This document shows positions 24,602 to 64,000 of a DNA stretch of 64,000 nt, piece after piece. The translations under genes and the position numbers were made by a program. Where the stretch lies: positions 101,879 through 165,878 of the forward strand of contig JBFMAK010000003.1 of the NCBI GenBank assembly GCA_040755695.1, in the 5' to 3' direction. A model generated the notes under the pieces. It had not been told where the DNA came from, searched no databases, and was given only the letters and a program-made list of their open reading frames with translations. This DNA comes from Candidatus Iainarchaeum sp. GTDB lineage: Archaea > Iainarchaeota > Iainarchaeia > Iainarchaeales > 1-14-0-10-31-34. Numbering within the stretch: position 1 is the stretch's first letter; each line of letters starts with the position of its first letter.

Positions 24602-24604
24602 AAA

Positions 24605-34821: not shown

Positions 34822-34828
34822 TTCAACA

Positions 34829-35437: not shown

Positions 35438-35446
35438 TAAAAAAAC

Positions 35447-35986
35447 TCACCCTTTCTTGTAGTAAGCGCAAATTACCGGAAAGTTTTCTGTCGACTTCTG
35501 GTTGAATTCCAATTTATACAGGCCTCTCTCAATCTCATTCTCCGGATTCAAGTCAACCAAATCATAATCGCCAATTTTTGCAGGGCAGCCTTTATCCCCT
35601 GAATCAAAATATGTTGCCTGGCTTATGTTCAAGCACTTGTTTTCAATGTATCCTGCATCGCTCCTGTAATTCAATAGCAAGCATGACTTTAATGAGCCAG
35701 GGCAGACCCTGCATTGTATGGCCTCAATTGAACTGATGATTTTGATTTCTTCATTTTTTCCGCACTGGGACGCAATAAAAGAGAGTGGAGCAGCAGCAAT
35801 GGTTTCATTGTTTGCTACCTCCTGGATTTTCGCTGCAAGGTTGTCCAAGTCCTTGTTTTTCTCTTGCAGGCACTTCCTGTTTGATGCTTCAGTCATTGCA
35901 TACAATCCAATCAATATAACAAAAGTCATGAGGATTACTGCAACAAGAAGTTCAAAAGGGGCTTCCTCCTGCCCACTGCAATTCAT
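35447..35986 (-). CDS. Pilin-like protein with class III signal peptide
   Basis: MNCSGQ|EEAPFELLVAVILMTFVILIGL. The ATG overlaps the stop of the upstream small ORF as ATGA. Confidence 0.55.
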   Translation of the reverse strand: MNCSGQEEAPFELLVAVILMTFVILIGLYAMTEASNRKCLQEKNKDLDNLAAKIQEVANNETIAAAPLSFIASQCGKNEEIKIISSIEAIQCRVCPGSLKSCLLLNYRSDAGYIENKCLNISQATYFDSGDKGCPAKIGDYDLVDLNPENEIERGLYKLEFNQKSTENFPVICAYYKKG

Positions 35987-35988
35987 TT

Positions 35989-36150
35989 CACGTTCCCCCA
36001 AGAGTCTTCCTTGAAGTATTCATTGCGTTCTGGAACATTGGCTTAATTACTGCGATCAGCAAAAGGGCAGCAATAATAAGGATTACAAGCATGTAAACAG
36101 AATTCCACTCGCTCTGCGCTCTCTCCTCAGAAAAAAATTTTGATTCCATT
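35989..36150 (-). CDS. Small membrane protein (53 aa), possible minor pilin
   Basis: MESKFFSEERAQSEWNSVYMLVILIIAALLLIAVIKPMFQNAMNTSRKTLGGT. Stop/start ATGA overlap with the next pilin gene. Not in the ORF track because it is under 60 aa. Confidence 0.35.
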
Positions 36151-36227
36151 CAAAACATCACTAAAATAAGAACAGAAGAAATATATAAAACATTAGGCAA
36201 AAAAAGAGAAAAAGAGAGGGAAAGAAA

Positions 36228-36752
36228 TTATTTAACTAATCCCACAATGCAGCAGGTATCAGTATTATCTGGAGTAGCGCAATTGCAACCTGATACATCA
36301 ACGTCTTTTAGGAATGAGGTGTCTTCAAGGGAAGTTGATAATGCGTTGCCTTTGTCACAGTATGCTGCAAGGTATGCCTGCTTCTGGCCGCCGCCTGTAT
36401 ACATTATTGATTTTGCTGTTATAGTCCAATTAGGGGGCCCAAATGAACTTTCCCCAACCATACATAATTGGTCGGCAGTAATTAAACCTGATGCCTCTGC
36501 AGTTGCTTTTACATTTATTTGATCATTATTTGAAAACGTTACAGCCTTTGTCCTGTAATCATTATACCTGTTATTGTAAGCCTGCTTTAGTATTTCAACT
36601 GACTCCTTTTTCGGGTCGCCCTGACCTATAGGGCCAATCAATCCAAGGATGTTTAAAAGCAGGGTGAGAATTACGACTGCAATTACTGCAGAAATCAATA
36701 ACTTAAATACAGAGAATTCCTGCCCTTTAGAATTCATTTTTGATTTCACCAT
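36228..36752 (-). CDS. Pilin-like protein with class III signal peptide
   Basis: MNSKGQ|EFSVFKLLISAVIAVVILTLLLNILG. Confidence 0.6.
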   Translation of the reverse strand: MVKSKMNSKGQEFSVFKLLISAVIAVVILTLLLNILGLIGPIGQGDPKKESVEILKQAYNNRYNDYRTKAVTFSNNDQINVKATAEASGLITADQLCMVGESSFGPPNWTITAKSIMYTGGGQKQAYLAAYCDKGNALSTSLEDTSFLKDVDVSGCNCATPDNTDTCCIVGLVK

Positions 36753-36789
36753 TAATTAGAATGCTGTTATAATATTTAAATATATAAGT

Positions 36790-37239
36790 TTAGTCCTTGG
36801 GGAAGTCCATGCCGTACAATGCAATGCAGCAGAATTCAGGGCAGGCACTGCTCTCGCAGGAGACAGAGCCCTGGGAGTAGGCGCTGTAAGAGAAACTGAT
36901 TGCACTAATTATGTCTGGGTCATCGCATTTCACGAAGACATTTGTTTTGATTGCCTGGTTTATTTGAATTGACGAAACTTCACTGGAATTGCTTACAGTG
37001 AATGCACTGCTTTTAGAGGAATTGAATTTAATGCATTTCTCGTCAATGTTTGCTTTTGAGCCTAACTGCTTTGAATTGAAAGAACCTTTAGGAATTGAAA
37101 TTCCTGCGATTGCTTTTGTTGTGCCGTCAGGGCTCTTTGATGCGTGCCCTATTCCTTCAGTGATCCTCTGAAGGCTTATATCATAGTTCACTTGTTCGAG
37201 GTAATTAATGATTCCGACAATAATGAAGAGCACAGCCAA
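36790..37239 (-). CDS. Pilin-like protein; the class III signal peptide is encoded upstream of the annotated TTG start with no canonical start codon
   Basis: The in-frame upstream extension (to 37311) reads FRIKINSSGQ|EFEVFKVLIWGIIALAVLFIIVG, which sits immediately after the TGA stop of the platform gene in the same frame. Confidence 0.5.
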   Translation of the reverse strand: MAVLFIIVGIINYLEQVNYDISLQRITEGIGHASKSPDGTTKAIAGISIPKGSFNSKQLGSKANIDEKCIKFNSSKSSAFTVSNSSEVSSIQINQAIKTNVFVKCDDPDIISAISFSYSAYSQGSVSCESSACPEFCCIALYGMDFPKD

Positions 37240-43223: not shown

Positions 43224-44219
43224 CTATTTTCTGGCTTTAGGCCTTGCCTTTCTTTTCACTGGCTTTTTTGCAGGCTTTAAGGCAGGCTTTTTTGCGCTTG
43301 AATCAAAGGCATAGACATTCAAAAAGAACAGGCTTCCATAGCCTTGGGCCCAGACGCCGAATAATACATTTATTATGAACCTGATGATGGCAGCGATGGC
43401 AACTGCCAGTAAAAAGAACGAGAAAACAAAAGAAACCAAATTCAGGATGCCCCCCACTATTAAGAGAACAATTACTGCAGCAAGGCTGAAGATGAAATAA
43501 GCTACTGCAAAAAAGTAATTCTTGAAGTAATTCTTTCTTCCAAGCCAGTAAGCCCTCTTGAAGGAATCAATTATTCCAATGTCCTCAAAGTACGGAACAG
43601 CATTCAGTACGATGAGGAAAGGAAGCAGAACAAGATAAATTACCCCGAAAATTATTGCCCCAAGCAAGAGCCAGGCAAAAACCTTAAGGAAGAGAAGCAA
43701 AAATGCAGGGAAAAGAACCGAGAGAGCAAAAGCAGTCTGGGCAGAAGTGAATGGGAGAGCAGAAAACAAAAAAGAGAATTCCTTTATTGCATTAAGGAAG
43801 TATATTGCAACAGGAATCAGCCATAAGATAACTGCAATTGCAACAACAAGGTTCACAACCAATTTTACGCCGAAGGCAGTTACAAGCCTTGGCTTCAATG
43901 CCTTCCATGCGCTTCCCAATTCAATTTTTTTTCCTGAGGCAAGGGCCCTAGAAAAATTCAGCTTGAAGCCCAAGAAAAGGGCTTCAGCGAAAGCCATTAT
44001 CACAATGAAAACAAAGAAAAGCAGGAGATAAATCCAGAGGGCTGCAACCGAAAACTTAAAGGAAAGAAAGGTTGCCACCGCAGGAAGCACAACAAAAACC
44101 GCAATCAAAAAAATTGAAAGGACAGAAACAATAATTCCTGCCAGGAAATTATAGCCAAGGAACCTTGGACTAAAAGAGCGCCTGAAATTGTTCAATGCAT
44201 AATCAATATAGAAGCCCAT
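43224..44219 (-). CDS. Polytopic membrane protein with Lys/Pro-rich C-terminal tail
   Basis: Eight or more TM helices. C-terminus KKPALKPAKKPVKRKARPKARK. Confidence 0.5.
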   Translation of the reverse strand: MGFYIDYALNNFRRSFSPRFLGYNFLAGIIVSVLSIFLIAVFVVLPAVATFLSFKFSVAALWIYLLLFFVFIVIMAFAEALFLGFKLNFSRALASGKKIELGSAWKALKPRLVTAFGVKLVVNLVVAIAVILWLIPVAIYFLNAIKEFSFLFSALPFTSAQTAFALSVLFPAFLLLFLKVFAWLLLGAIIFGVIYLVLLPFLIVLNAVPYFEDIGIIDSFKRAYWLGRKNYFKNYFFAVAYFIFSLAAVIVLLIVGGILNLVSFVFSFFLLAVAIAAIIRFIINVLFGVWAQGYGSLFFLNVYAFDSSAKKPALKPAKKPVKRKARPKARK

Positions 44220-44283: not shown

Positions 44284-44853
44284 ATGCCCAAAAAAATCAA
44301 AATTAAAAAGGAAAAAAAAAGGGGAAAAAAGAAAGGTTTTTTCAGCATTGAAAGAGAGGACGCACTCAAGGGCGGAAAATTTGTTTTACGAATCCTGCTC
44401 TTTTATTTGATACTGCTCGCGCTCTCATATTTTCTTGTTCCATTAGGTTTACTGGAAGAAACAATTGCTTCTCACACTAATTATTTTTTGGGCCTTGCAG
44501 GAATCAAAGGCGAAGTAATAAAAGCAGTGAATGAAAGCCCTGCTGGAATTGAATTCCAGAAATTCAATGTAGAAATAAATTACCTGTGCACTGGCCTCCT
44601 CGAGCTCACAGTGCTCTTGGCTGCAATAATTGCAACGCCTTACATAAGTTCAAGGAAAAAAATTTTTGGTGTGATGGGAGCCATAATTGTCTCCTATATA
44701 TTCAATTTAGCCAGAATTGTCTTCACGATAACTGCAATAAGCTCTTACAGCATAAAGACAGCAGAACTGACCCATGACGTGCTTTTCAGGATTTCGCTCT
44801 TCATTATAGTGGCAGGCTACTATTTCGTTTGGCTCAAAATTGTCTCACATTGA
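44284..44853 (+). CDS. Small polytopic membrane protein, possibly exosortase/archaeosortase-family
   Basis: Conserved Cys in YLCTG and Arg residues in NLARIV and FRISLF at a spacing reminiscent of exosortase/archaeosortase catalytic residues. Weak. Confidence 0.3.
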   Translation: MPKKIKIKKEKKRGKKKGFFSIEREDALKGGKFVLRILLFYLILLALSYFLVPLGLLEETIASHTNYFLGLAGIKGEVIKAVNESPAGIEFQKFNVEINYLCTGLLELTVLLAAIIATPYISSRKKIFGVMGAIIVSYIFNLARIVFTITAISSYSIKTAELTHDVLFRISLFIIVAGYYFVWLKIVSH

Positions 44854-44858: not shown

Positions 44859-45467
44859 TTATTTCTGCAGCAACAGGAAGGCCTTGGCATTGTATAAAAT
44901 AATCCTTTCCTTTTGAACTTGCACAGCAAAAGAGGCGGCTTTAATTAATTGCCTTTTGAATTCGTTTTCTTCGATAATTAAAGGGGTTGCCTCCCTTCCA
45001 ATATTCAAGCTGATTGTCTGAAACAACCTGATTATTCTGTTTTTTTGGGTTGAATCTGCTTTTTTGACAATAAATAAAATATCAATGTCCGATGCTCTGG
45101 TTAAATGCCCTCTCGCAATTGACCCAAACAAAACAATTGAAACAAGATTGCTTCCAAAAATTTTTTTGAAGGAGTCAATTCTATCAATCAATTCTTTAAC
45201 TACTGCAAACTTTGAGGTAGCAGATAATTTTTCCTGCTCTTCAACCAACTCAAAAGCAGATATACTCAAAGGATTGTCTAGCACTGGAAAAAGCTGCCTA
45301 ATGTTCCCAACCTGCTTTGAATAAATAAGGTTTGCTTCCTCCAATTCATTCAAGATGCCTTTAATATCTCTAAGTGAACCAACCAATTTCATTAAAGCGT
45401 TAACGTGAATTTCGGGGTTCCTGGCAACCTCCGCAAGAATTCTTTGCCTTGACTTTAAAATCAACAT
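44859..45467 (-). CDS. Minimal nucleotidyltransferase (MNT) with N-terminal wHTH, HEPN-MNT module component
   Basis: LFGSIARGHLTRASDIDILFIV is a pol-beta-type NTase motif (GS...DxD). Confidence 0.7.
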   Translation of the reverse strand: MLILKSRQRILAEVARNPEIHVNALMKLVGSLRDIKGILNELEEANLIYSKQVGNIRQLFPVLDNPLSISAFELVEEQEKLSATSKFAVVKELIDRIDSFKKIFGSNLVSIVLFGSIARGHLTRASDIDILFIVKKADSTQKNRIIRLFQTISLNIGREATPLIIEENEFKRQLIKAASFAVQVQKERIILYNAKAFLLLQK

Positions 45468-45473
45468 ATTTAA

Positions 45474-46055
45474 TCACTTCAACAATTCATCAATTTCTTT
45501 AACGAAATTAAAAGCATTTCTCCCAATTGTTCTGACATCATCTTCCTTGACCTTAGTCACAGTATACAAAACACTGTTCCTGAACTGCCTGACTTTTCCA
45601 AGCAGATCTATTTCTTCATCAAAACTTTTTCTTGCGCTGCCAAACCCTTTAACAAACCTTTCGCCATGCAGTATCTCAAGCATCAAGGCAATAGTACAGA
45701 CGTGGTCCTTGGCGGCTTGACCCAAAAAATGAGAAGTAAAAGCCTTGGCTGCCATGTACATGCCAGCATAATAAGCGATAATTGCCCAATCAAGAAAATT
45801 GTCTGATTCAAAAGATTCTGCAGTCTGCAAATGATAATGCGCTTTAGCCAAAAAGGTTTTAGCGTCTTCCTTGGTGAATCTCTGAATTCTCTTTCTTTTA
45901 AAACATTCACTCAAAACCCTTTTCACTGCCCTTAAAGATTTAGGAATCTTTGAGTCCACGTCAACAAAACCCATAAAAACAACACCGCCTGCAAAAATAC
46001 ATATAATCATATGCAAAAATACATATAAAAGATTTTCGGGTGCCTTAAAAAGCAT
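45474..46055 (-). CDS. HEPN-domain protein (partner of MNT)
   Basis: All-helical protein next to the MNT gene, with a C-terminal RQFRNSVLYT-type segment. The pairing is typical of HEPN/MNT toxin-antitoxin-like modules. Confidence 0.55.
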   Translation of the reverse strand: MLFKAPENLLYVFLHMIICIFAGGVVFMGFVDVDSKIPKSLRAVKRVLSECFKRKRIQRFTKEDAKTFLAKAHYHLQTAESFESDNFLDWAIIAYYAGMYMAAKAFTSHFLGQAAKDHVCTIALMLEILHGERFVKGFGSARKSFDEEIDLLGKVRQFRNSVLYTVTKVKEDDVRTIGRNAFNFVKEIDELLK

Positions 46056-46154: not shown

Positions 46155-49100
46155 ATGCAATTGATTGCAGAAAAGCTTGGGGCAATCTACGGTAAAGTAG
46201 AGAATGCCTTTTACGGGGTATTAGACTTCCTTGACTCAAAAGGCATTCCAGTTTACGCACTCGTAGACCCGCTGGAAGAGAGGGGCATTCCGTTCTTCCC
46301 GCTCTTTATTGCATTAATTGTAATTCTGATTGGAGGATTTGCTGCATTCACATTAATTGGAACAGGCATTGAGACAACCCTCCAGTTAAGCATTCACGAC
46401 ATACAAAACAAGCCATTGAATGAAGTGAACCTTACAGTGTATGACGACCAAGGGAACACGCTCTTAAGCCAGCCTAACGCAGAAGACAGCACTTCAATAA
46501 AACTTCCAAAAGTAAAGCCTGGAGCAAAGATAAGCCTTTCTGCCTCAAAGCAAGGCTATGAGACAGTGCAGCAGGAGCTTGAAGTGAAAGGCAACCTAAT
46601 TGACGTTTCAATTGCAATGCAGGAAGCGGCTTCAACTATAACCCCAAAAATAAGGTTCATTGATGCCCAAACAAAAACTGCTGTGCCTTATGTTCAGGCT
46701 CACTGGAGCTTCAATGACAACTCACAGGAGGGAAGCTCGGACGAAAATGGTCTAATAGAATTAACAGGAATTCCATTGAATGAAGACATCCTCCTTGAAG
46801 CAATAGCAGACGGATACGAGGATTACTCTGATACAATACAATTCACTTCAGATACAACAAAAGTAATTGAATTAATTCCAGTTGAAGGCTCGCTCACAGG
46901 CCAAAGCACACTAATAGTAAAAGTGATTGACGCAGAAACAAAACAGCCTTTGGACAAAGCAATAGTGCAGGTGTTCGACGAAGACAGTGGCTCCAAGTTA
47001 TATGAAATAATAACAGAACAAGGCGTATTCTCGGAGAAAATAGACAAAGGAACAGTTGTGAGGGTGACAGCAGAAAAAGACGGGTATGTTAAATATGATT
47101 CAAGCGAGGAAAAAAAATTCCTTACCCTGAGAAATGACACAGAAGACTTTGGAACCATAGAATTAGAGAAAGGGGGCAGCAGGATTCAAGTGAATGTATA
47201 CGACAAAGACTCAAAAATGCTTGTAATTGACGCTCAGGTAGCATTATTCAATGACAAAGGAGAAATCATTGACTTCAATGCAACAGAATTCGGGGGCTTT
47301 GTAGAATTCAAGAACCTGGACCCGAATTCCACTTACTACATTGGAACAAGCGCAGAAAACTATCTGACAGACAGAACCAAGCTCATACCAAAAGCACTGC
47401 AGTCAATAAACATTGAATTAGAGAAGATTACAGCAGACAATTCAGGCAAACTGAATGTGTACGTAAACAATTCCCTTGGAAAGCCTGCGGGAAACGCAAT
47501 CCTGAACTTCTATGAAGAAAAAGAAGGAGAAATGCTTTTATTGGGAATTCCAGCACAAAAAACAAGCTCTGATGGAGCCTACAGCACGACAGTAAAAATG
47601 AACCAAAACATTACAGTGAGAGCAACAAAAGAAGGAGAGGAAGGCCAAGCCCAAATAACAATAGAAAAGAAATCAAACGATGTCCTCATAGAAATGCAGA
47701 AAGCAAAGACAGCAAAGACAATAAAATTCTTTGACGAAAAAGGAATTCCAATAATTGAAGGATTGCTTACAATAAAAAGCCAGGCTGGCGAAGTTCTGTA
47801 TGACGGAAATTTGAATGCAGAAGTAATATTTGACACAGCAGGAAATGATTTTGTTTTAGTTCAAGCGCAAACCCCGGACGGAAAAACATTTGAGGAATTG
47901 GTTGACACAAGAAACAAGGATGAACTGTCAATAGAATTCAATAAGGCCCCAATGAACGAATTAGCTCCAAAAATAGAATTCTTGGGCATATTCGACTTAG
48001 AGGAGAATGAAATTGAAGGCCTGACAAAAGGAGAAGAAGCAATACTGAAATTTGAAACCCAATGGATTAAAGGAAACTATTCAGGCGGAGTGCACATTAG
48101 GGTAGGGCCAGACAACATCAAATACATTGACTCGCAGTATGCAGGAATAACAGGCTTTGAGGCCCCAACACAAAAATACTTTTTGGGCAGAACCTACAGC
48201 CCAACCCCTGCTCCAGGAGCAGAAGGCCTAGATTACAGCAACAGAGGCCAAACAGGAGCAATGAACAAATTCTTGGAGTTATATTTCAACAACCCTGAAG
48301 GAACAAAAATAATCAAAGTGAAAGTCCAGGCAAGAGAAACAATAAAAGAAGACAAAATTAATTTAAGTTACAGGGCATGGAGCAAAATTAATGGGCAATA
48401 CAACAGGAATCCAGCTGACACAATATTAAACGAAGAGGAATTCAATGAATCAAAGCAAGGCTTATACGCAGAAACAACAAGCAAAGAAATAAAAGTATTC
48501 ACCACAAAACCTTCATGCTCTGAAGACCTCTGCGCAAACTACTTATTTTACGACGCAAGCGGCAGGTCCTACAGCACAAAAGAATTCATTGCACTCAAAG
48601 ACAATGCTTATGCACTGGAAATAGAATTGAATGCAAGAAAAACAGTCAATGCAATAATCAAGGCTTCAACCAATCCTTCAGCGCCAAAGATTGCATTCAC
48701 AGGAAAAGAGGAAGGAGAATTCACTGAAATAGCAGACAACAATAACTCAGACACCTCAATTGAAACAACAGAAAATGTCACGAGAGCAGAAGCAAAAAAG
48801 ATAAGATTCTACTTTAAGGCAAAAGAGTTAGGAACTTCTTCTATAAAAGTCCAAGCAATAGCAGGAAGCTCTTCAACTGAAGAAGACTTATACTTCAAGG
48901 TGTTCCAAGAAAAAGAAATGAGCCTGACAACAATCCCCTCAGAGCTCAGCTTCGGGAAAGACTTTGAAATACAATTAAAAGGAAAGAATGAAAACGAGCC
49001 CGTAAAGGACGCAGAAATAAAAATCTTTAATTCAGAAGAAAAATTGGTTGAACACATAGTTGGAGACGGAAAAAATGGAACGGGAGCAAACGGAAGATAT

Positions 49101-52100
49101 AAAGTAAATAATAATTTGGGATTAGGAAGCTACAGGATTGAAGCAACTTCCCCTTATTATACCCCAATAAGCTCTGAAATCACAATAGGAAAAGAAGACG
49201 CATTCACTTTAGCAGAAAAAATTTCCTTGTTTATTCCAGCGCAGGAGACAAGCACTGCAGCAACAGAATCTTTGAGTAATAATTCAGGCGAAGACATAGA
49301 TAATATCTCAATTGAAATCATTAAAGAAAAGAATTTCCCTTCAACGCTTGAGGTTACAGCAGAAACAAACCCTTTCATGAATAAGGGAGAGAAAGCAGGC
49401 ATTGAATTGAAAGCAGACTATTCAGGCGACCCAGCAGTAACCGTGCACGGGGAAGCAGACTTAATAATAACAGGAGAAATTAAAGGAAAATTTACTGCAA
49501 AGGCAAAATCCAAAATCATAATAGAATACAACAAGAAATTAGATGGAAGCTGCCTGCAATTAGACAAAACAGAATTAAAGGAATACCTGATAGGCCAAGA
49601 AGGAAACTCAAAAGACTTAGAGCTCACAATAAAAAACAACTGCGGAATGCCCTTAACACTAAAAAGCGAAATAACACCAAAAACAACAAGAGAAGAAAGC
49701 ATTGAATTCATCCTGCCTGAAGTAAGGCTGAAAAAAGATGAAACACAAACAATAAAGATTGGAGTACAGAACAGGATAAGAAGGACATTTGACGCGCAGG
49801 AAAACAAGGACTACACCTTCTTCCTGAAATCCTTCCAGATAACCAAAAGCCTCCCACTCACAATAATTTTATGGGACGAAAAATTCTCTTTAAGCGCCCC
49901 AGCACAGTTAGTATTCTTCCTCACTCAATCAAAAGCAAACCAGAAAGCAGTAAGCTTCCCGCAATTTGTCTATGTAAGAAACACAGGCTTTGCAGACATA
50001 AAAAATTTAACATTAGGAATTGACAGGGTTGACTGGCAGAATGTAGGCATAAGAATCCTGCCAGAACAGGCAGTGCCCTTACTGGCAAAAAGCCAAAACC
50101 TAAACCCCCCTTACATCTTAGTGGCAGAAGGGGACTCAGCAAAAAACAAGTTCGTGAAAGGAAGGCTGCTCTTAAACGGATTCATTGAAGGAAAAAGCTA
50201 TTTGCTCAGAACAATCGATGTATTCGTTTACGTGAGCGCAGGAATGAGCTGCCTTGAAGCATGGAGCGATGAGGACTTACTCTTTATTTCAAGCGAAACA
50301 GGCCCTGTAGTAATACAGAAGCCAATAAAAATATTCAATCATTGTCTTGAGCCAGTGCAGATAACAGGCTTAATGGCTCCAGGGGGAAGCATCCCGAACA
50401 CAGGGAACAATCAATTGTACACTAATGCAAGCAATACAACCTTAATGCCTGACACCCTGGGCGAATTCACTCTCACTTTATCTGCTGACAGGGACTGGCA
50501 GGGAGAATCAACAGTAATACTTAAAGGATTCGGGGTTAACAGCCTGCAGGAGATTGACTCCAGCCCATTAAAGATTTCAATAAAGAAAGGAGAGAATGTA
50601 AGCACGTGCAATGCAGGAGCTGATCAGCCGTGCCTTTCATCTGACTCACAGACCATAGACGTGTGCGGTGAAGGCGAAGGCTCAAAAACAATATTCTGGC
50701 CTAAAATATCACAGAACAACGACTGCACCCAAGGCTACTGCGACGCAAAACAATTATCTGTATTCCTTGCAGAAAAACTGCAGCAGAAAATAAAAGAAGC
50801 AAAATCAAGAATCCTCACTCTAAGCAGTTCATCCCTCAATTTAGGAGGGAAATGCATTGAAGGATACTGCACTTTCGGAGCCTTAGGAGTAAAGCCTGAA
50901 TCATTTGAATTCTACTTCCAGGGAGACAGGCTTGGCACAGGAATATTCGAGAACGAGATAAGGCAAGGGAAATACGATGAATTATTGAATCCTTACATAA
51001 GGGAAAGCGACGAAGACATTACAGACATTGCAAGGTCAGGCTTTACTGGAAGAACAATAATAATTCCAATGCAATTGAAAGGCTGTGGAAGATATACAAC
51101 AAAAATTCTTGGGGCAGTGCAGGAATACAATACAGAATTAAAGCCAGAGAACATTGCAATCCAAGTAAAATTGGACGGGAGAAGGGAGACAACACCAGAA
51201 TGCAATAACAGGATACAGAATGTAATGAACTTCCTTCCAGTAGACAAAGGCTATGATGCAGGAACAAAAGATGCAAGCTGGGCTGCCCTCATAAGAAGCA
51301 ATTCAGACCTGAAAGACATAGCAGAAGACTTCGGGAAAGCATTGTTTGAAACAGAAAAAGGAAGGGTTGTAAGCAGTCCATCAGACAACTACATTGAATT
51401 CGCAGTTGCAGACTTAGGGCAATACATACTCAAAATAGAAATTGAAAGGAAAGGCGCAGCAGACGAGCCAAAAAAAGTTTTAGTAACAATTAATTCAAAT
51501 TACAATGAAGCAAGCGATGAAGTCACAAGAAAAAGCATTGCAACAGAAGCAGGAAACATTATAAGAAGGTTAAAGAACAACAAGATAGACAAGGGCTGCA
51601 TCTCAAAAAACGAAGACTACTTCCTCATAAGCTCAGTGAAAGACTTCAAGGAAGAGGCTGCATTGAAATTAGAAGGACCAAAGGAACTGAAATTATACAT
51701 CAACAAGGAAAGCTGCATTGACCTGAATATTACAACAAAAATTAAGACTGCATTAGACATTGCATTCAATTCCTCTGACTTCAAAAGCAAGGCAGGCATT
51801 ACAAGCATTGGCCTCAAAAAAGAAAAAAAGGATTCAATTGAAGAAAAAATAAGCTTTGAGGCAGGGCAATTGAAATTAAAAGGAAAAGACGAGAAGAATA
51901 AAATTTATTCTGCTTCCTTCCAGTTGTGCGCCACAGCAGACAATGAAGTGCAATACGCAGACTTAAGCGAGGTAACAGTGAACATAGAAGGAATAGACAT
52001 TGAAGACCACAAAATTACACTAAAAATCTGCGGCATAACACCGCAAGACTTGTACGCAGAAGTAAGAAACAACATCAATAACAATGCCTTCAAAGTCGGA

Positions 52101-54050
52101 GAAAAACCTTATTTTGCCACAGTAGGCTGGAACGACAATGGAGATACTTTGAGTCTGGCTGACATAGAGAAAGACTACTACGACAAGCACAAAGACCAAG
52201 ACCCGCAGAATGTGCTAAAGAAAGAAATCAAAACAAAGAGATTAACTGGGATAGGCGCTTATACGGCGGGTTGTGTTGCTGGCGTTTTTGCAACCAATGC
52301 TGCATATACAGTAGTTGGGTTAGGATTTGGAAAAATTTTTTGGGATCTTATATTTGATTGCGGATTGCCCGCAGGAGTGGGAGCGGCAAATGAGTTTGGC
52401 GCATTTGAAGGCAACAGCCCATTAAAGCCTCTGAAAGGAATAATAAACTTTATTGGAGGCGGCATGAACATTGCAGGAAAAGTTGCAGGGGTTGGAGGCA
52501 CAGAAACACCCCCAACCTCTTCAGGGTATAACTTGGAAAACCAGAAATTGGATGACGGCACAGGAACAGAAAACTTAAGTGAACAAGATTTAAGCCTAAT
52601 ATATGGAACAACAGCTATAGATCTATTAGGGAGAGGAATAGCCGGTGGAGCAAAGAAATTAGTAACAAAAGCAGAAGTACCCCAGGCTCCAGCACCAGCA
52701 GTACAAGATTTTGCTAGTCTGGAGAAAAAAATAAACGACTTAGGTTTCTCTATACAAAAGCACAACAATGCAGTAATAAGTGCAAGAAAAGATTATGGAA
52801 AAACTTTATCCAGTAGTCTCCGCCCAGAAGAAGCTGTTGAAATAAGAAAAGCATCTAATCATTTCATAGAAGGAATTTTGAAAGAAGGGCAGGAAATTGA
52901 CGGCATGTTCAGCAAGATGGATAGAACAACGCTTGCAGCACATCAAAACGATTTATTAAAGTTTAAGAAAATGCTGGCTAACATAGAAATTGAGGAAGCA
53001 AAAGGTGGCTCAATAAGAATAATAAGCAAAAGTTCAATAACCAGAGTTCAGACAAGTGTATTAAGTGACCCTGCAGTCGTATCAGACATAGAAAATATAA
53101 TTAAAGCAGGGGGAAAACCCAAAGTCACAGCACTCAAAGAAGTATTATCTGTAATTAAAAGCCCTATTACAAGAGGGATCCTAAAATTTTTAGGTGGGCA
53201 GTTAGGAGGAAAGATTGTGTGGAACTGGTACTGGAAATCGCAAGGCCCAGTTTCTCCTTATGAAGTTACATCTGGAATAGTGAAGACTGAAAGAGGGGTA
53301 ACCTCAAATGTGGATGGAGGCGTTTTCGAGAAAAACCAGACATACAAAGTGTCTTTAAAGAAAGACGAGAAAACAGGCAAACCATTAATGCAATTCGAGA
53401 AAGTGGTAGACTTAAAAGATGTTGACAATGAAAGAAGGCTTGATGACTGCGACGGAAAGTTCCTGGAGCAAAAGCCCCCTGAAGCTAAGACTGCTTTATC
53501 ACAGGCATGTAATATCACAAAAGAAAGTGTAACACCCCAAAGCCTGAGCAGATGCGAGCCATTAAAGACGCCAATAGAAACATTTTCCAGTTCATTCACT
53601 GTTGACCCGCTAATGATGACATCAATTTACTGGCAGGAATCAAAATGCAATCCAAATGAAGCAGACGGAGGGCTATGCCAGCTTACATCAGAAAACAGGC
53701 AAGGGATTACAACAACAGAACAGCAAATACGGCAGTGCACTAAACTTTATTCTGATTGCCTGCAGAATGCCCGAGGCAAGGGCCTTTCAGGGGAAGAAGC
53801 AACGCAATACGCTTTATTCTGCTTCAACAGAGGCCAGGGAACACAGAATCTGGCACTTGACCTGAAATACAATCAAGGGAAAGACAATTATACTGCAATG
53901 GCTGAAGCGTGTTATACTTATTTCAAGAATGGCTGCGGCAAGCTATCAGCAAAAGACTGCTGTGAAGGGGAAGGATTTGGCGCAAGATATCCTGAAAAAG
54001 TTTTAGGAATTTATAATAAGGCGTGCAGCGAGATTGGAACTCCTGCATAA
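46155..54050 (+). CDS. Giant membrane-anchored surface protein (2631 aa) with repeated prealbumin/Ig-like domains, a Gly-rich hydrophobic segment and a C-terminal lytic-transglycosylase (SLT)-like domain
   Basis: N-terminal conserved motif plus TM (…GIPVYALVDPLEERGIPFFPLFIALIVILIGGFAAF). Repeated CarbopepD_reg-like units (VKVIDAETKQPLDKAIVQVFDEDSG...). C-terminal YWQESKCNPNEADGGLCQLT resembles the ES..NP.A...G.GLMQ motif of family-23 lytic transglycosylases. Confidence 0.8.
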   Translation: MQLIAEKLGAIYGKVENAFYGVLDFLDSKGIPVYALVDPLEERGIPFFPLFIALIVILIGGFAAFTLIGTGIETTLQLSIHDIQNKPLNEVNLTVYDDQGNTLLSQPNAEDSTSIKLPKVKPGAKISLSASKQGYETVQQELEVKGNLIDVSIAMQEAASTITPKIRFIDAQTKTAVPYVQAHWSFNDNSQEGSSDENGLIELTGIPLNEDILLEAIADGYEDYSDTIQFTSDTTKVIELIPVEGSLTGQSTLIVKVIDAETKQPLDKAIVQVFDEDSGSKLYEIITEQGVFSEKIDKGTVVRVTAEKDGYVKYDSSEEKKFLTLRNDTEDFGTIELEKGGSRIQVNVYDKDSKMLVIDAQVALFNDKGEIIDFNATEFGGFVEFKNLDPNSTYYIGTSAENYLTDRTKLIPKALQSINIELEKITADNSGKLNVYVNNSLGKPAGNAILNFYEEKEGEMLLLGIPAQKTSSDGAYSTTVKMNQNITVRATKEGEEGQAQITIEKKSNDVLIEMQKAKTAKTIKFFDEKGIPIIEGLLTIKSQAGEVLYDGNLNAEVIFDTAGNDFVLVQAQTPDGKTFEELVDTRNKDELSIEFNKAPMNELAPKIEFLGIFDLEENEIEGLTKGEEAILKFETQWIKGNYSGGVHIRVGPDNIKYIDSQYAGITGFEAPTQKYFLGRTYSPTPAPGAEGLDYSNRGQTGAMNKFLELYFNNPEGTKIIKVKVQARETIKEDKINLSYRAWSKINGQYNRNPADTILNEEEFNESKQGLYAETTSKEIKVFTTKPSCSEDLCANYLFYDASGRSYSTKEFIALKDNAYALEIELNARKTVNAIIKASTNPSAPKIAFTGKEEGEFTEIADNNNSDTSIETTENVTRAEAKKIRFYFKAKELGTSSIKVQAIAGSSSTEEDLYFKVFQEKEMSLTTIPSELSFGKDFEIQLKGKNENEPVKDAEIKIFNSEEKLVEHIVGDGKNGTGANGRYKVNNNLGLGSYRIEATSPYYTPISSEITIGKEDAFTLAEKISLFIPAQETSTAATESLSNNSGEDIDNISIEIIKEKNFPSTLEVTAETNPFMNKGEKAGIELKADYSGDPAVTVHGEADLIITGEIKGKFTAKAKSKIIIEYNKKLDGSCLQLDKTELKEYLIGQEGNSKDLELTIKNNCGMPLTLKSEITPKTTREESIEFILPEVRLKKDETQTIKIGVQNRIRRTFDAQENKDYTFFLKSFQITKSLPLTIILWDEKFSLSAPAQLVFFLTQSKANQKAVSFPQFVYVRNTGFADIKNLTLGIDRVDWQNVGIRILPEQAVPLLAKSQNLNPPYILVAEGDSAKNKFVKGRLLLNGFIEGKSYLLRTIDVFVYVSAGMSCLEAWSDEDLLFISSETGPVVIQKPIKIFNHCLEPVQITGLMAPGGSIPNTGNNQLYTNASNTTLMPDTLGEFTLTLSADRDWQGESTVILKGFGVNSLQEIDSSPLKISIKKGENVSTCNAGADQPCLSSDSQTIDVCGEGEGSKTIFWPKISQNNDCTQGYCDAKQLSVFLAEKLQQKIKEAKSRILTLSSSSLNLGGKCIEGYCTFGALGVKPESFEFYFQGDRLGTGIFENEIRQGKYDELLNPYIRESDEDITDIARSGFTGRTIIIPMQLKGCGRYTTKILGAVQEYNTELKPENIAIQVKLDGRRETTPECNNRIQNVMNFLPVDKGYDAGTKDASWAALIRSNSDLKDIAEDFGKALFETEKGRVVSSPSDNYIEFAVADLGQYILKIEIERKGAADEPKKVLVTINSNYNEASDEVTRKSIATEAGNIIRRLKNNKIDKGCISKNEDYFLISSVKDFKEEAALKLEGPKELKLYINKESCIDLNITTKIKTALDIAFNSSDFKSKAGITSIGLKKEKKDSIEEKISFEAGQLKLKGKDEKNKIYSASFQLCATADNEVQYADLSEVTVNIEGIDIEDHKITLKICGITPQDLYAEVRNNINNNAFKVGEKPYFATVGWNDNGDTLSLADIEKDYYDKHKDQDPQNVLKKEIKTKRLTGIGAYTAGCVAGVFATNAAYTVVGLGFGKIFWDLIFDCGLPAGVGAANEFGAFEGNSPLKPLKGIINFIGGGMNIAGKVAGVGGTETPPTSSGYNLENQKLDDGTGTENLSEQDLSLIYGTTAIDLLGRGIAGGAKKLVTKAEVPQAPAPAVQDFASLEKKINDLGFSIQKHNNAVISARKDYGKTLSSSLRPEEAVEIRKASNHFIEGILKEGQEIDGMFSKMDRTTLAAHQNDLLKFKKMLANIEIEEAKGGSIRIISKSSITRVQTSVLSDPAVVSDIENIIKAGGKPKVTALKEVLSVIKSPITRGILKFLGGQLGGKIVWNWYWKSQGPVSPYEVTSGIVKTERGVTSNVDGGVFEKNQTYKVSLKKDEKTGKPLMQFEKVVDLKDVDNERRLDDCDGKFLEQKPPEAKTALSQACNITKESVTPQSLSRCEPLKTPIETFSSSFTVDPLMMTSIYWQESKCNPNEADGGLCQLTSENRQGITTTEQQIRQCTKLYSDCLQNARGKGLSGEEATQYALFCFNRGQGTQNLALDLKYNQGKDNYTAMAEACYTYFKNGCGKLSAKDCCEGEGFGARYPEKVLGIYNKACSEIGTPA

Positions 54051-54071: not shown

Positions 54072-55721
54072 ATGAAAAGCAAAGGCTTTACATTATTCAC
54101 TGCTCTGGTTTCTTTTGTGCTGATTGTGCTAAGCATTCTTTTAGTGCAGGGAATGATTAATGCAGAGAGGGCGAGAATTGACACTATAACTGCAATAGAA
54201 GAGCAGGCTAAAATGCAGGAGATCGCAGACCATGAAAGAAACGATGCGCTGCAATTGCTTGTGTACGACATCAGGTTTGAGCTGGAGGACTACTTCAACA
54301 GGGAAGACAAGATAGGCCCTTTATGCTATAATTGCAGCTTTGATGAATTAGTCCAGCAGTTTGCTGAAAGCAAGTTCGGCGCCTGCTCCAGAGAAATGCC
54401 TGCAGAAGAATGCAACAGGACAGGGGGGGAACAATTAGCGAATTTTGTTGCAGCAACCTTGTACGGGCAATTAAGCTCGACAAAAACAATAGGCTCTTAT
54501 TACATTAAAACTGACCTGGGAGATGAAACAGAGCTCAAGTCAAGCCTGAAAAACTTGATTAATAAAAGTGCAGGGCAAGGATCTTTTTTTAAAGTAATTG
54601 AATGCGAGAACGGAGACCCTAAAAACTGCACTGGAACATTCTATCTTTCCTTGAGGGTAGGAGACCTTTCAAACGAAGAATACGAGAAGCTGCCCAGAAT
54701 TTCAGTCACAAACACGCAGACAGGCAGAGTGCTTCAAGTTGCAGTCCTTCCAAGAAGCAACTTCCAGATTTATGTGCCTTTAAGATTCTTCAAGGCAGTG
54801 GCAGAAGCAAGGGCACTAGTAATGGAGTACGATAAAGAGGATTCTGGAAGCTGGAGCAGTAACATGGGGTTATTCAGCCCGAGAATACACAACGAATTAG
54901 AAGAATTGAAATTAGGAATGTGCGACAAAGACATTTGCAATTATAGAACAAATCCCTATAAGCCCCCAGACAGTGAAACAATGAGCACGGCATGGTGCCC
55001 TAATGAATTGGCCCCCCCGCCACTAGATCAAAGCATAAATTGCGATAGTCTATTATTTTCTTTAGGGTTTTGCGATGGCAGAATTACAAAATATAACCCA
55101 TCGAAAAAGAAAGACATAGAAGATGCAGTAATAGAATTGACAAAAAAGAGGTTGTATAATTTAATTGACAATAAACTTAACATTTACCTAAATAATGACC
55201 CTAATTTTAAATATGTTGGTAGCGAAATTACCCCTGCTGTCGAAGTAAAAAATTCAAAGATTATTTTTTCGAGCGGAAGCTTAGCATCAGTATCTGGAAA
55301 TAAAGATTGGTCTTACAGGGACCCTTGCTCTTACACTAATACTGGAGTTTGGCTTGAAAATAATAAAATAAAAGGAGAAAAAATTTCTGGTGAATGCGAA
55401 GGAGATCAATCAGGCACTTTAGGTCACGGTTTTTGCGGGGAACTCTCATCAATTGATGTTGTATTTAAGTTCAATGAATTAAATCCGCTTTATGCAGTAA
55501 ACAAAAAAAAACCTGAACACAAATATTCAATCTGGTTTGAAGACAATCTTTATTCATCTTTTACAGCAAAATATGAAAGAAAAGCAACAAACAGTGACTG
55601 TGCACTTAATGGAGAACCTCAGCCTATTTCAGGCGGATGCAATTATGTTGCTGGGTGGAGTTGTTTTGTTGAAATTCCAATGAGTGGCTCATACGAAGGA
55701 TGCCAACCAAAAGCCCCTTAA
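54072..55721 (+). CDS. Cys-rich pilin-like secreted protein (550 aa) with class III/type IV-pilin-type signal peptide
   Basis: MKSKG|FTLFTALVSFVLIVLSILL (a G|FTL-type prepilin motif). Many Cys residues. GGTG RBS upstream of the ATG at 54072. Confidence 0.6.
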   Translation: MKSKGFTLFTALVSFVLIVLSILLVQGMINAERARIDTITAIEEQAKMQEIADHERNDALQLLVYDIRFELEDYFNREDKIGPLCYNCSFDELVQQFAESKFGACSREMPAEECNRTGGEQLANFVAATLYGQLSSTKTIGSYYIKTDLGDETELKSSLKNLINKSAGQGSFFKVIECENGDPKNCTGTFYLSLRVGDLSNEEYEKLPRISVTNTQTGRVLQVAVLPRSNFQIYVPLRFFKAVAEARALVMEYDKEDSGSWSSNMGLFSPRIHNELEELKLGMCDKDICNYRTNPYKPPDSETMSTAWCPNELAPPPLDQSINCDSLLFSLGFCDGRITKYNPSKKKDIEDAVIELTKKRLYNLIDNKLNIYLNNDPNFKYVGSEITPAVEVKNSKIIFSSGSLASVSGNKDWSYRDPCSYTNTGVWLENNKIKGEKISGECEGDQSGTLGHGFCGELSSIDVVFKFNELNPLYAVNKKKPEHKYSIWFEDNLYSSFTAKYERKATNSDCALNGEPQPISGGCNYVAGWSCFVEIPMSGSYEGCQPKAP

Positions 55722-55906: not shown

Positions 55907-58900
55907 ATGGGGTTGAAGGAATTCTACCACAGCATTGAAGACGCTTACTATGGGTTAATGGACCAACTGGACAGGGCGGGAATTCCAGTATACAAAATAA
56001 TTGACGCAATCGAAGCAAAAAACATTCCGTCATTTCCGTTCTTCTTATTGTTTGTAATAATAGTGCTGTGCGGCCTCTACTTCTTTGTTGCAGTCCCAAT
56101 GCTTGGGCCTTCAATGAATTCTTTTTCCTTGGTTGTGGCAAGCGACAAAGGCCCAATAGAAAATGCTGTAGTGAAACTCCAGGTTGACGACAACATTACA
56201 ACCTATGTTACTGACGACAAAGGAAAGGTCTCCCTCACAATAACCAAAGGCAAAGGATTCCAGCTGACAATATCAAAAGAAGGATTTGAAGAAAAAACGC
56301 AGACCTTCAGCGCAAACGAATCAGGAGCAACAATCACATTAAAGGGCCAGACAAAAACAGTTACTGTAAGGCTGCTCAAGGCAGGGACAAGCGAAATAAT
56401 AAGCCAGGACGTAAGCGTTTCATTCTATTGTTCAGGCAACTCCGATTATTATAAAACTGAAACATCAAGCGACGGAGTAATAGAATTAGCTGATGTTCCA
56501 TATGACTGCGGGACAATCACAGCAGACTCAAGGGAGTTAAGCTGTACAGACTGCAGTTTTGACTCAAGTGACAGCAGTTCCTCAATCTACTTGCAAGAGG
56601 AAGAGCAAGGAAAAGGCACTGTAACATTAAGCGTGCAGGACGAAAACCTGGAGCCAATAGCAGGAATTATTGCAAGGATTATTCCAAACAATGGGAGCAC
56701 AACAGAGGAAACGAGGTGTACAACAACAGGAACAGGCGCGTGCACTGCAAGCAATGTGCCTTTCGGGGAATACTATTTCACTCTGACAGACAGCAGCGAA
56801 AAATATGAGTTCTATGATTCTTCTCTGAAAAACAATTTCATTACAGTCAATTCTTCAAACACTAACGCTTACTTAAGCACCATAACATTAGGCGAAAAGG
56901 TTGTAGGCCAAATAAAAGTAAAAATAATTGATGATTCAACAAAAGAAGCAGTTAATGGAGCTGAAGTGAAATTATTCAAGGACGGAAAAGAGCTGTACAC
57001 AAAAAATTCAGGTGAAGACGGGATTGTAGTATTTAATGTAAGCGAAAATGTTTCCTACTTCCTTACAGTGAATCATGTTGATTACTTGATTCCTGGCCCG
57101 TTGGCAGGAATAAAGCCGAGCGATGAAACAAGAGAAATAGAATTAAGCAGGGCTGACTCAACAAACAGCCAGCGGATTGAAGTTCAAGTATTGGACGAAA
57201 AAGAAGAGCCAGTAGAGAACGCAAAAGTATTCCTGAAGGACGCTGACAGGCCTTCAGTGATAATAGGCCAAATGCTTGTAACAGGGGTAGATGGAAGAAC
57301 CCAATTCGAGAGAGTGAAAGAAGGAAGGTATTTAGTTTACGCGGAAAAAACAGGGTTCAAAGGAAAAAATTCCGATGAAATAGTTACAGTAAAACCAAGG
57401 CAGCCTGCCTCTACAATAGTTAACTTGACAATAGGCCAGGGCACAATAGAATTAAAGGTATTGAACGAAGAACAGCAGGGCATTCAGGGGGCAACAATCA
57501 AAGTAATGGACTACTTTACAGGCACAGAAATTGCAACAGAGCTTACAGACACGCAGGGAGAAAAAACATTGACTTTAAGGGCAGACAAGAAAGTTTACTT
57601 GATTGCAAGCGAAAGCACCAAAGCAGATTATACTACAACCCCAATCCAGTTATTCCAGGGCGCCCAAAGCAATACGATAACCATGGTGGACCAAAGCAAT
57701 GCAAAAAACTTCAAGGTATTATTGAACGGAATTTATGGTATGGATGAACAGGCAGTAAGCGAAGGACAGGGAGAAACAGCAACAGTGCTTGACTCAGGCC
57801 AAAGCTTTAAAGTGAAATTGCAATTAATCCTGCCTAATGCATCCTACTCAAGCGCTGGAATACATTTAAGGACTGGAGCAGACACAGAAAACCAGGATAA
57901 CATAATGGAGCAGGACGACTTATACTTAAAGGATATTACTGCACCAAATGCAAGGATAATTAAAGGAACTTCCTTCAATCCTTCAAACGGTTACTCGATA
58001 GACTCGCAGCATTTAACTTCAGGGAACTCTAAATGGGCTAATGTAATTTTTTCTAATCCGAGAGCAGGCGTAATTGAAGCAGAAGGCGTAATTCAATTAA
58101 GGGGAAGCCCTGCAAGCACTCAAATGAATCTGGCTTACAGGGGCTGGGCAGTATCAGGCGGAACATACTTAAGGGACCCTTACGATTCAGAACTAAAAGA
58201 ATCTGAAAGCACTGCAACAAAACAGTCCTTGTACGCAAAAGCAAAATACGAGCCAATAAGAACTGGAAGCTCTTCACTCTGCACTGAGAAGTTCTGCTAC
58301 TGGTTCAGGATAACAGACCAGAGCACTGGAGTGCAGACAACTGTATCGGACAGCATGCCTGCAGAAATGTCCAATTCCTATCAACTTGAATTCAATTTAA
58401 TAAGCTTGAGCGAACAGAAATTCTATGAAGTCTCATTAAGCATTGCAAATGACAGCCAAGGAATTGAGTTTAAGAATTTTAATATCGCGGGAGAAAACAA
58501 GAATTTAAAGGCATCAAAGATTTTGAAGCCTTTGGGTGAAATAAGCAAAGGAGAAAAGATTTCAGGGACAATAGAATTCACTACAAAAAAAGAAGGGGTA
58601 AACAAGATAGACTTCGGCTTGAGCGCCAAAACCTCTCTTGGAACAGAAAAAGCATTCTTTAAGTCAATCAAAATTGACGTGCAGGCAGCAGGGGAATTCG
58701 AATTACAGGTTGTGCCTGCAGTACTAGTTTCATTAATACAGAATGATATAATAGTGAAGGCAGTTGATTTGTTAGACGGAAGCCCTGTAAGCGATGCCAC
58801 CATAAAAGTAATGAAAAACAATAATAATTTGTTTTCAGGGACAACAAATTCGGATGGAATTTACTCTTTCTCTCTTGAGCCAATGAGCACGGGAACAAAG

Positions 58901-63544: not shown

Positions 63545-63558
63545 ACGGTGAAAGAAAA

Positions 63559-64000
63559 TGGGAGTAACAGACTTTTATTACGCGCTCGAAGACAAATACT
63601 ATGATTTAATGGACAGGATTGACCGGGTCATCCCAATACACAAGATAATTGAGCCAATAGACAAGGTCTTCCCCTCATTCATTCTGTTCATTATAATTAT
63701 CCTGCTTCTCATAGGCTCAGGGATTTACTTGGCATTAGGAGGACTGCCAGGAAAAGACGTGCAATTAACATTCCATGTAACAGACCAGAGCAGAAGCAGC
63801 CTGAACGCAATAAGCATTAGCGCAACACATGATTCAAAAACCGAAAGCCTTACAACAGACATGACAGGAAAAACAATGCCCTTGACAGTGAAAGCAGACA
63901 CAATTGTTTCATACGAGATAGATGAAAGCTCCTACGAAAAATTAAGCGATTCAATTAAAGTCGAAGAAAACAAGACATTAACGCTCACCCTTTCGCCGAA
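63559..64000 (+). CDS. Third giant-protein paralogue, 3' truncated by window edge
   Basis: MGVTDFYYALEDKYYDLMDRIDRVIPIHKIIEPIDKVFPSFILFIIIILLLIGSGIYLALGG has the same N-terminal motif plus TM. A prealbumin-like domain starts (LTFHVTDQSRSS...). Confidence 0.6.

Follow-up and report, generated by a model that had tools for sequence, protein, structure and literature searches.

The contig JBFMAK010000003.1 of Candidatus Iainarchaeum sp., a tiny DPANN archaeon of the Iainarchaeota/Diapherotrites, harbors a gene for a Cys-rich protein, AB1467_05965, within the 64,000-nucleotide (nt) stretch of DNA analyzed here (the window). The gene lies at positions 54072–55721 on the forward strand, between genes for giant surface proteins. 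The protein very probably carries a class III (prepilin-type) signal and a pilin fold. That it is also processed, assembled as a tip or minor pilin by a type IV pilus (T4P)-type machine and docked to the giant proteins is a longer chain of events, for and against which we see the balance as even.

Reading Frame and Class III Signal

The reading frame opens with an ATG at 54072 and runs for 549 codons to a TAA stop at 55719–55721, and a Shine-Dalgarno-like tetramer (GGTG) ends 7 nt upstream of the ATG. The NCBI record (P0001, hypothetical protein AB1467_05965, Candidatus Diapherotrites archaeon, 192-kb contig) shows the same ATG and 549 amino acids (aa), with 100% identity and coverage. A first-pass annotation of the window had called a Cys-rich open reading frame (ORF) at this place with a length of 550 aa; the ORF is real and the length was one residue too long. 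The 18 cysteines amount to 3.28% of the residues as against a mean of 1.05% over 40 genes of the window, in line with the Cys-richness noted earlier. Six of them (C178, C186, C284, C289, C309, and C455) were invariant in an alignment of 31 family members, which would fit an extracellular, disulfide-stabilized protein. An alternative in-frame TTG at 54054 would merely add six residues (MFWCYS) to the leader. The next methionine is residue 28, yet residues 6–30 are among the most conserved of the family and are therefore translated, so that a later start does not apply. The class III signal, which the first-pass annotation had made dependent on the start codon, is thus retained.

The protein begins with MKSKG↓FTLFTALVSFVLIVL (↓, predicted cleavage site), the first 20 residues being MKSKGFTLFTALVSFVLIVL. 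Among 69 homologues of the protein, 63 showed the N-terminal motif [KR][GA]↓F[TN]LF(T/S)ALV followed by ∼22 hydrophobic residues. Position -2 of these 63 was occupied by K (48) or R (15), position -1 by G (46) or A (17), position +1 by F without exception, and position +5 by T (60) or S (3) and never by D or E. The leader was mostly five residues long, and the remaining six homologues had N, S, or Q at -2 or were truncated gene calls. Judged from the aligned sequences, such regularity is beyond chance, and the prepilin-type signal proposed earlier is well founded. The hydrophobic stretch had a mean Kyte-Doolittle value of ∼2.2–2.5 across the homologues and of 2.4 for residues 6–27 of AB1467_05965. 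The top-conserved 25-residue stretches of the family were residues 6–30 and 225–250, the mean majority-residue fraction being 0.74 for residues 6–30 vs. 0.27–0.59 elsewhere. By sequence comparison, conservation of this kind at the N-terminus is typical of pilins, unlike that of ordinary signal anchors.

The N-terminus therefore combines a short, positively charged leader, G or A at -1 and a hydrophobic residue next to it with ∼20 hydrophobic residues that form the front half of a long α1 helix. The acidic residue that the bacterial rule places at +5 is absent from the family; GspK of the type II secretion system (T2SS) pseudopili likewise lacks Glu5. Published archaeal processing sites consist of K, R, or D followed by G or A, with the cut ahead of a hydrophobic or Gln residue, and a negative residue at +5 is optional in archaeal pilins (PMC4371748). 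The pattern in the family of AB1467_05965 is in agreement with these sites. None of the curated N-terminal prepilin models of Pfam or NCBIfam was matched above its threshold. An NCBIfam scan aligned residues 4–39 with NF041002 (pilin_ComGF) at an E-value of 0.0019, far under the curated cut-off, and one homologue matched Pfam ComGE at a sub-threshold E-value of 0.043.

Predicted Fold and Domains

Tertiary structure was predicted with AlphaFold2 (AF2). The whole-protein model, built on 31 sequences, reached a mean predicted local distance difference test (pLDDT) value of 84 and a predicted template modeling (pTM) score of 0.80; two AF2 models, with pLDDT values of 84 and 89, both showed an unbroken helix from about residue 3 to 76. 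An α/β region extended to ∼residue 260 and was followed by a β-rich C-terminal half. The globular head consisted of a β-sheet packed on the C-terminal half of α1, as in the pilin fold. The best structural matches were filament tip and minor pilins, led by the tip pseudopilin GspK, and a Foldseek search against the PDB gave no match. Although the scores of these matches were modest, they were exclusively to pilins, which, at the level of predicted models, is beyond chance. The N-terminal half is hence a predicted pilin domain, made larger by helix insertions, with GspK as its nearest counterpart, and the earlier description of the protein as ‘not filament-like’ is to be withdrawn for this half. 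The absence of Glu5 and the sizeable insertion or additional domain in the predicted pilin fold correspond to the GspK/PilX type of architecture. The periplasmic-binding-protein fold of the bindosome type was not found.

Sequence searches placed the protein in no known family. No family passed the threshold in scans of Pfam and NCBIfam or in a profile search of PDB sequences, where the family profile gave no match at E ≤ 1. In the absence of sequence homology to GspK, AB1467_05965 is called GspK-like in architecture and is not filed as a member of the GspK family. For residues 263–549, no relative was found among PDB structures or by sequence searches. This part was less conserved than the N-terminal half and was shortened or replaced in some lineages, where ORFs of ∼355–400 aa occur, e.g., in Ca. 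Iainarchaeum andersonii (L051; L-numbers are labels of related loci).

Family and Distribution

The 69 homologues, obtained by a word-indexed search, all came from DPANN metagenome-assembled genomes, and none bore a functional name. The breadth of the family was assessed by a hidden Markov model (HMM) scan of the full 50%-identity library, which yielded 258 family representatives; of these, 191 had E ≤ 1e-30, and outlying families were not seen. When each GTDB species was represented by a single genome, 112 species genomes contained a relative, and nearly all of them were labeled Iainarchaeum, Diapherotrites, or ‘archaeon’. Among them were Ca. Iainarchaeum andersonii and GW2011_AR10, a complete genome. 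One copy was seen per locus. No Pfam, NCBIfam, or arCOG assignment of the family was found, and a literature search found no account of the family or of its gene cluster. Four family-bearing contigs (L015, L025, L026, and L028) were labeled Thaumarchaeota, Falkowbacteria, or Chloroflexi/Chloroflexota. L015 and L025 showed the full synteny with the giant genes described below and L028 a giant B homologue, while L026 was too short to show synteny; the four are probably mis-binned or mislabeled contigs of Iainarchaeota.

Genomic Organization Among the Giant Genes

As the first-pass annotation had stated, the gene is set between giant genes. It begins 21 nt downstream of a 2631-aa gene (giant A) and ends 185 nt upstream of a 2545-aa gene (giant B), and a third giant (giant C) starts at 63558. 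Giants A and B are paralogous across their first ∼1000 aa (BLASTP E-value 2e-39), and both contain CarboxypepD_reg, SpaA, and macroglobulin-type immunoglobulin (Ig) domains behind an N-terminal motif and one transmembrane (TM) segment. A TATA-like sequence, TTTAAATA, is present ∼45 nt upstream of the giant A ATG, and the 185-nt gap before giant B contains T-runs and a TATA-like box. Giant A and AB1467_05965 probably form one transcription unit, as the sequence suggests from the TATA-like box before giant A, the gap of only 21 nt and the T-runs with a new TATA-like box after AB1467_05965.

The gene order in five relatives, obtained by exact look-up, was archaeosortase-like gene, giant A, AB1467_05965 homologue, giant B, sometimes a protein with four TM segments, and giant C; the third giant was also present in L001 and L003–L006. 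This gene order is near-universal and holds down to ∼30% identity. Among loci with enough flanking sequence, an ORF of at least 2000 aa on the same strand was found upstream in 49 of 50 and downstream in 47 of 49, and the exceptions carried ORFs of 1450–1960 aa, which are probably split giants. With tblastn, a homologue of giant A was detected upstream in 79 and one of giant B downstream in 80 of 86 loci, and an archaeosortase-like gene preceded giant A in 26 related loci. The co-occurrence with giant genes for which the first-pass annotation had asked therefore exists in essentially every related genome examined (79–80 of 86).

The giants share a ∼45-residue cytoplasmic motif (..YY.L.D.LD..GIPVY..ID..E..IP.FP) followed by the single TM segment (46155–46370, 55907–56100, and 63558–63740). 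The motif is unannotated, and the giants that flank the homologous gene in related loci keep it. Whether the giants have class III signals of their own was considered, and the idea was rejected: giant A shows ERG↓IPFFPLF, but giants B (KN↓IP) and C (KV↓FP) do not conserve the motif. The C-terminal ∼200 aa of giant A (53440–54050) form a Cys-rich module with IYWQESKCNPNEADGGLCQLT, recalling the catalytic Glu-Ser and GLxQ motifs of lytic transglycosylases. The match to Pfam SLT had an E-value of 0.13 and no PDB sequence was matched, so a lytic transglycosylase module is an unproven lead at sequence level; if real, the giants would carry wall-degrading activity. Between the archaeosortase-like gene and giant A, a gene pair of the minimal nucleotidyltransferase (MNT)/HEPN type is present on the reverse strand (44859–46055), as it is in the same place in L001. 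The MNT-HEPN module has been listed as unusually conserved in DPANN (PMC6393860).

The T4P-Like Locus in the Vicinity

A T4P-like locus with an ATPase, a platform gene and six small ORFs lies 12 kb upstream of AB1467_05965 on the opposite strand. Close to their N-termini, five of the six small ORFs have a glycine followed by a hydrophobic stretch (KGQ↓EFSVF.., SGQ↓EEAPFELL.., LG↓FTLSK.., KG↓FLGP.., and KGQ↓AAIT..), and the Cys content is 3–4.9% in four of them and 0.9% and 1.2% in the other two. Their order is conserved in L091, L094, L096, L097, and L116. Pfam and NCBIfam scans gave no family match for the six, and the term ‘pilin’ is therefore applied to them on the basis of N-terminal motifs and context. 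The position of the 331-aa protein encoded next to the locus is conserved in L006, L012, L018, L052, L055, L089, and L096.

The association of AB1467_05965 with an ATPase and platform of the PilB/FlaI and PilC/TadC type recurs with the same layout in at least 12 related loci. Viewed from the ATPase, close relatives kept the order of genes within the T4P-like locus, and the archaeosortase-like gene and giant A were divergent neighbors in L087–L089, L096, and L097 (metagenome scan, tblastn). Viewed from the pilin-like gene, the ATPase or platform gene was found next to the archaeosortase-like gene, at the margin of the locus, in L010, L012, L035, L040, L047, L050, and L058. In the complete GW2011_AR10 genome the two loci are ∼20 kb apart.

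The 1497-aa secreted protein at the distal end of the locus (27803–32296, reverse strand) has no Pfam match and ends in PSLPENPIMLILFISLLLFSFSLIQSKF...RKNRKRK, a TM segment with a basic tail. AB1467_05965, in comparison, terminates in ...SYEGCQPKAP without the hydrophobic segment of an archaeosortase substrate of the PGF-CTERM or a similar type. Lacking a C-terminal TM or sorting signal, it leaves the neighboring archaeosortase-like enzyme to act elsewhere, for example on the 1497-aa protein, which from its sequence is a plausible substrate.

A search of the fetched related loci for multi-TM ORFs with a GxGD motif gave eight candidates for an A24 prepilin peptidase, all adjoining the more distant ATPase homologues, and none was accepted: seven are presenilin-like (YD/GGGD/PAL) and the eighth lacks A24 features. 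A membrane protein of 276–287 aa with 7–10 predicted TM segments and YD/LGGGD/PALP motifs was observed near distant ATPase homologues (55–58% identity) in L101, L102, L103, L107, L110, L112, and L113, ∼6–8 kb from the ATPase match. By its motifs it looks like a protease of the presenilin/signal peptide peptidase (SPP) type rather than a prepilin peptidase.

A second T4P-like locus is located at 22304–25540 (forward strand), comprising the gene of a 491-aa T2SSE ATPase followed by a pair of T2SSF/TadC-like platform genes (271 and 311 aa); pilin genes were not seen next to it. The split-platform layout is described for the archaeal ‘system 1/4A’. Just upstream of it, at 19954–21942 (forward strand), a 662-aa protein rich in Pro, Gln, Gly, and Glu is encoded, which has an N-terminal hydrophobic segment and two occurrences of the motif C-x5-C-x3-C-x-DPAH-x2-EC, and no Pfam match.

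Proposed Role of AB1467_05965

The protein would consist of the MKSKG leader, the N-terminal part of α1, a GspK/PilX-like pilin-fold head (∼28–260) and a variable, disulfide-rich C-terminal domain of ∼290 residues. Whereas the ORF, the signal motif, the predicted fold, the family restriction and the synteny were computed, we infer cleavage, assembly, tip position and giant binding. Entry into the membrane via the hydrophobic N-terminus follows from the sequence and would be the first step. An archaeal prepilin peptidase of the PibD/FlaK type may then cut the leader after G5, as the motif suggests. In a third step, the T4P-type ATPase and platform would take up the protein as a minor, probably tip, subunit of a short pilus or pseudopilus, a step proposed because of the fold, the missing acidic +5 residue and the synteny; the small, Cys-rich pilin-like products of the genes beside the machine would form the body of this filament. 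Finally, the C-terminal domain could dock one or more of the three Ig-domain giants and couple them to the filament, as proposed from the near-obligatory gene order. The extracellular-type Cys enrichment common to AB1467_05965 and four of the six small pilin-like ORFs supports this scheme. The first-pass annotation had suggested either a pilus-tip adhesin or a component exported by the pilus machinery together with the giants. The former agrees with GspK as the best structural match, with a +5 position that is never acidic and with the variable C-terminal domain; as for the latter, the giants have N-terminal membrane anchors and joint export is therefore not required.

Several observations weigh against the scheme. 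The Pfam models N_methyl and Class_IIIsignal did not match the isolated N-terminus even at E ≤ 10, Pfam T2SSK/GspK did not match the protein, and neither the window nor the ∼2 Mb of related loci that were fetched yielded an A24 prepilin peptidase. The gene is placed inside the giant operon, away from the small pilin genes, and its KG↓FTLFT motif is unlike the KGQ-type motifs of the small pilin-like ORFs. With their own TM anchors the giants would need no pilus to reach the surface, and their contact with AB1467_05965 is proposed from gene order. Linkage of the T4P-like locus to the giant cluster is frequent, not universal: in L091 neither an archaeosortase nor a giant gene occurs within 10 kb upstream of the ATPase, and ATPase homologues at 50–58% identity are unlinked save for weak archaeosortase-like matches beside L115 and L118.

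Some of these observations would suit a different function. AB1467_05965 may derive from a pilin and serve the giant complex as a membrane anchor or assembly factor, independent of any filament, held by its N-terminal helix, processed or not, and organizing, stabilizing or chaperoning the giants in the manner of the pilin-like monotopic archaellum proteins FlaF/FlaG or of the binding proteins with class III signals in the Sulfolobus bindosome. This possibility, which we regard as tentative, draws on the position of the gene, which follows giant A by 21 nt within the giant operon and lies outside the T4P locus, on a linkage to giants that is near-universal as against an ATPase linkage in part of the checkable loci, on the TM anchors of the giants and on the existence of large non-filament PibD substrates (PMC4371748; see also PMC4425475). 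The best structural matches, however, are tip and minor pilins and not β-sandwich FlaF-like or solute-binding folds, the α1-N segment matches that of filament-forming pilins in its degree of conservation, and a T4P-type machine with a set of small pilin-like genes is often the direct neighbor.

A major structural pilin, polymerizing into a thick shaft decorated by its C-terminal domain, would also have a class III signal, a long α1, and a pilin fold, and Haloferax volcanii is reported to have pilins of relatively large size (PMC4371748). Such a role is nevertheless improbable, as 549 aa with a 290-residue extra domain far exceed known shaft pilins, a single copy of the gene was seen at each locus, and the C-terminal half varies, the ORF being cut to ∼355–400 aa in some lineages. 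The top structural matches moreover point to minor or tip pilins, and the five to six small pilin-like genes by the ATPase are better candidates for a shaft. Least probable of all, and already largely refuted, is an ordinary Sec-dependent secreted or signal-anchored protein with a chance resemblance to class III substrates: curated pilin models above threshold and a prepilin peptidase (window and fetched related loci) were not found, and a FlaFind-style rule would not accept Phe at +4, but K/R at -2, G/A at -1, and Phe at +1 recur in all 63 motif-keeping members of the 69, the ∼22-residue hydrophobic stretch is highly conserved and exceeds the length of a Sec h-region, and the signal is followed by a predicted pilin fold.

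Other Features of the Window

The coordinates of the features are collected in Table 1. Elsewhere in the window, a gene resembling FAD-dependent geranylgeranyl reductases (11062–13833, forward strand) is split by an intein with a LAGLIDADG homing endonuclease (Pfam Intein_splicing 9e-18, LAGLIDADG_3 2e-7). A tRNA-Gln(CTG) directly adjoins a 158-aa rve-type integrase fragment at 14070–14694 (reverse strand), an arrangement possibly left behind by an element that had inserted at the tRNA.

Table 1. Positions of AB1467_05965, its predicted parts and neighboring genes in the window.
Feature	Positions	Strand	Evidence
AB1467_05965 gene, 549-aa pilin-like Cys-rich protein	54072–55721	+	ORF, NCBI identity, 68 further homologues
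Class III leader MKSKG, predicted cut after G5	54072–54086	+	-2/-1/+1 pattern in 63/69 homologues; cleavage deduced from it
Hydrophobic α1-N segment FTLFTALVSFVLIVLSILLVQG, residues 6–27	54087–54152	+	Family conservation, AF2 helix, ComGF match
Predicted pilin-fold domain, residues 1–262: long α1, β-sheet, three inserted helices, invariant C178/C186	54072–54857	+	
C-terminal Cys-rich, β-rich domain, residues 263–549, variable in length and sequence	54858–55718	+	
Archaeosortase/exosortase-family membrane protein, head of giant cluster	44284–44853	+	Pfam Exosortase_EpsH; NCBIfam TIGR04178, 47.5 bits (cutoff 23)
Giant A, 2631 aa: N-terminal cytoplasmic motif, one TM, Ig-like/CarboxypepD_reg domains	46155–54050	+	
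Giant B, 2545 aa	55907–63544	+	Pfam CarboxypepD_reg, SpaA, bMG3
Giant C, 5′ end only, N-terminal motif MGVTDFYYALEDKYYDLMD, continues past window edge	63558–64000	+	
Secretion ATPase of the T4P type, 761 aa, with a long extension at the N-terminus	39733–42018	-	Pfam T2SSE 1.8e-16; FlaI/TadA-like in NCBIfam
T4P platform protein, 791 aa, single gene, TadC/T2SSF-like	37312–39687	-	Pfam T2SSF 4.8e-6; syntenic in relatives
Six small ORFs, 149–221 aa, putative pilins	33644–37239	-	N-terminal motifs and context
216-aa multi-TM protein and 1497-aa secreted protein, distal end of T4P-like locus	27803–32956	-	Conserved after pilin-like genes in L091, L116
331-aa multi-TM protein between archaeosortase-like gene and T4P-like locus	43224–44219	-	No family match

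Significance and Comparison With Known Systems

Precedents exist for large proteins with class III signals and for archaeal T4P loci rich in adhesins. New are the combination of a GspK-like pilin fold with a novel Cys-rich domain, and a family (258 representatives at 50% identity, annotated today as ‘hypothetical’) for which no curated model or description was found and which has a fixed place among three giant paralogues headed by an archaeosortase-like gene. To our knowledge, no member of the Iainarchaeota has been cultivated, and little is known about how DPANN archaea make contact with other cells, keep hold of them or feed on them. As the cluster is present in 112 species-level genomes and takes up ∼25 kb of a ∼1.2 Mb genome, it must matter to the cell. 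We suggest, as a speculative extension that is doubtful at present, that an archaeosortase-like gene, three Ig-domain giants (2300–2900 aa), the GspK-like pilin with its novel Cys-rich head as linchpin and a divergent T4P-type machine with oversized ATPase and platform genes make up an undescribed surface apparatus that is widespread in Iainarchaeota. If so, the pilus machine would extend or retract giant, possibly lytic, adhesins through a tip pilin, and the apparatus would be a DPANN organelle for cell attachment or predation, analogous to bacterial minor-pilin/PilY1 tips and independent of them. A conserved pilin-fold protein wedged between giants provides a testable idea of giant surface proteins linked to a T4P-like motor.

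Bacterial large minor pilins of the GspK/PilX type cap pili or pseudopili and, jointly with further minor pilins, display PilY1, an adhesin that is not itself a pilin. AB1467_05965 has in common with GspK, PilX, and PilK a prepilin-type signal without an acidic +5 residue, a pilin fold enlarged by inserted helices (as predicted), and adjacent genes for very large non-pilin surface proteins with a T4P-type ATPase and platform nearby. It differs from GspK and PilX in the lack of detectable sequence homology, in its archaeal host without outer membrane or secretin, and in the extra 290-residue Cys-rich C-terminal domain. Its candidate partners are TM-anchored giants of 2500–2900 aa, whereas PilY1 has ∼1100 aa, and equivalents of GspI and GspJ were not identified for it. 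For a tip complex with two or three small minor pilins, as in the GspK/PilX type, the small pilin-like ORFs at 33644–37239 are candidate partners. ComGF and ComGE of the Gram-positive competence pseudopilus gave the only sequence-profile matches of the family, but these were confined to the N-terminal helix and far under the cut-offs, and the proteins are bacterial and 3–6 times smaller.

Among archaeal systems, the Sulfolobus bindosome includes large extracellular substrate-binding proteins with class III signals that are processed by PibD, are not filament subunits and depend on a dedicated T4P-like assembly system (PMC4371748). These proteins are similar to AB1467_05965 in size (∼500 aa), probable extracellular location and signal; in AB1467_05965, however, a pilin fold is predicted and no solute-binding fold was detected, and the partner genes code for giant Ig-domain proteins instead of ABC transporters. 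The T4P ‘system 2’ of archaea is characterized by an ATPase with an N-terminal extension, one platform gene, several pilins with class III signals and large adhesin-like proteins (bioRxiv 10.64898/2026.04.22.720090; PMC4858521). The window locus corresponds to it in the extended ATPase, the single large platform gene, the small pilins and the large adhesin-like proteins, and AB1467_05965 shares with system 2/clade 2 the [K/R][G/A]↓ motif, the hydrophobic helix and the dispensable Glu5 (Makarova et al., 2016, PMC4858521). The main text of the two surveys (PMC4858521; bioRxiv 10.64898/2026.04.22.720090) does not cover Iainarchaeota/Diapherotrites, and they give no account of a gene that invariably lies among three giant paralogues with an archaeosortase-like gene at the head of the cluster. 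AB1467_05965 could be regarded as an archaeal, sequence-unrelated counterpart to the bacterial arrangement of tip pilin and adhesin.

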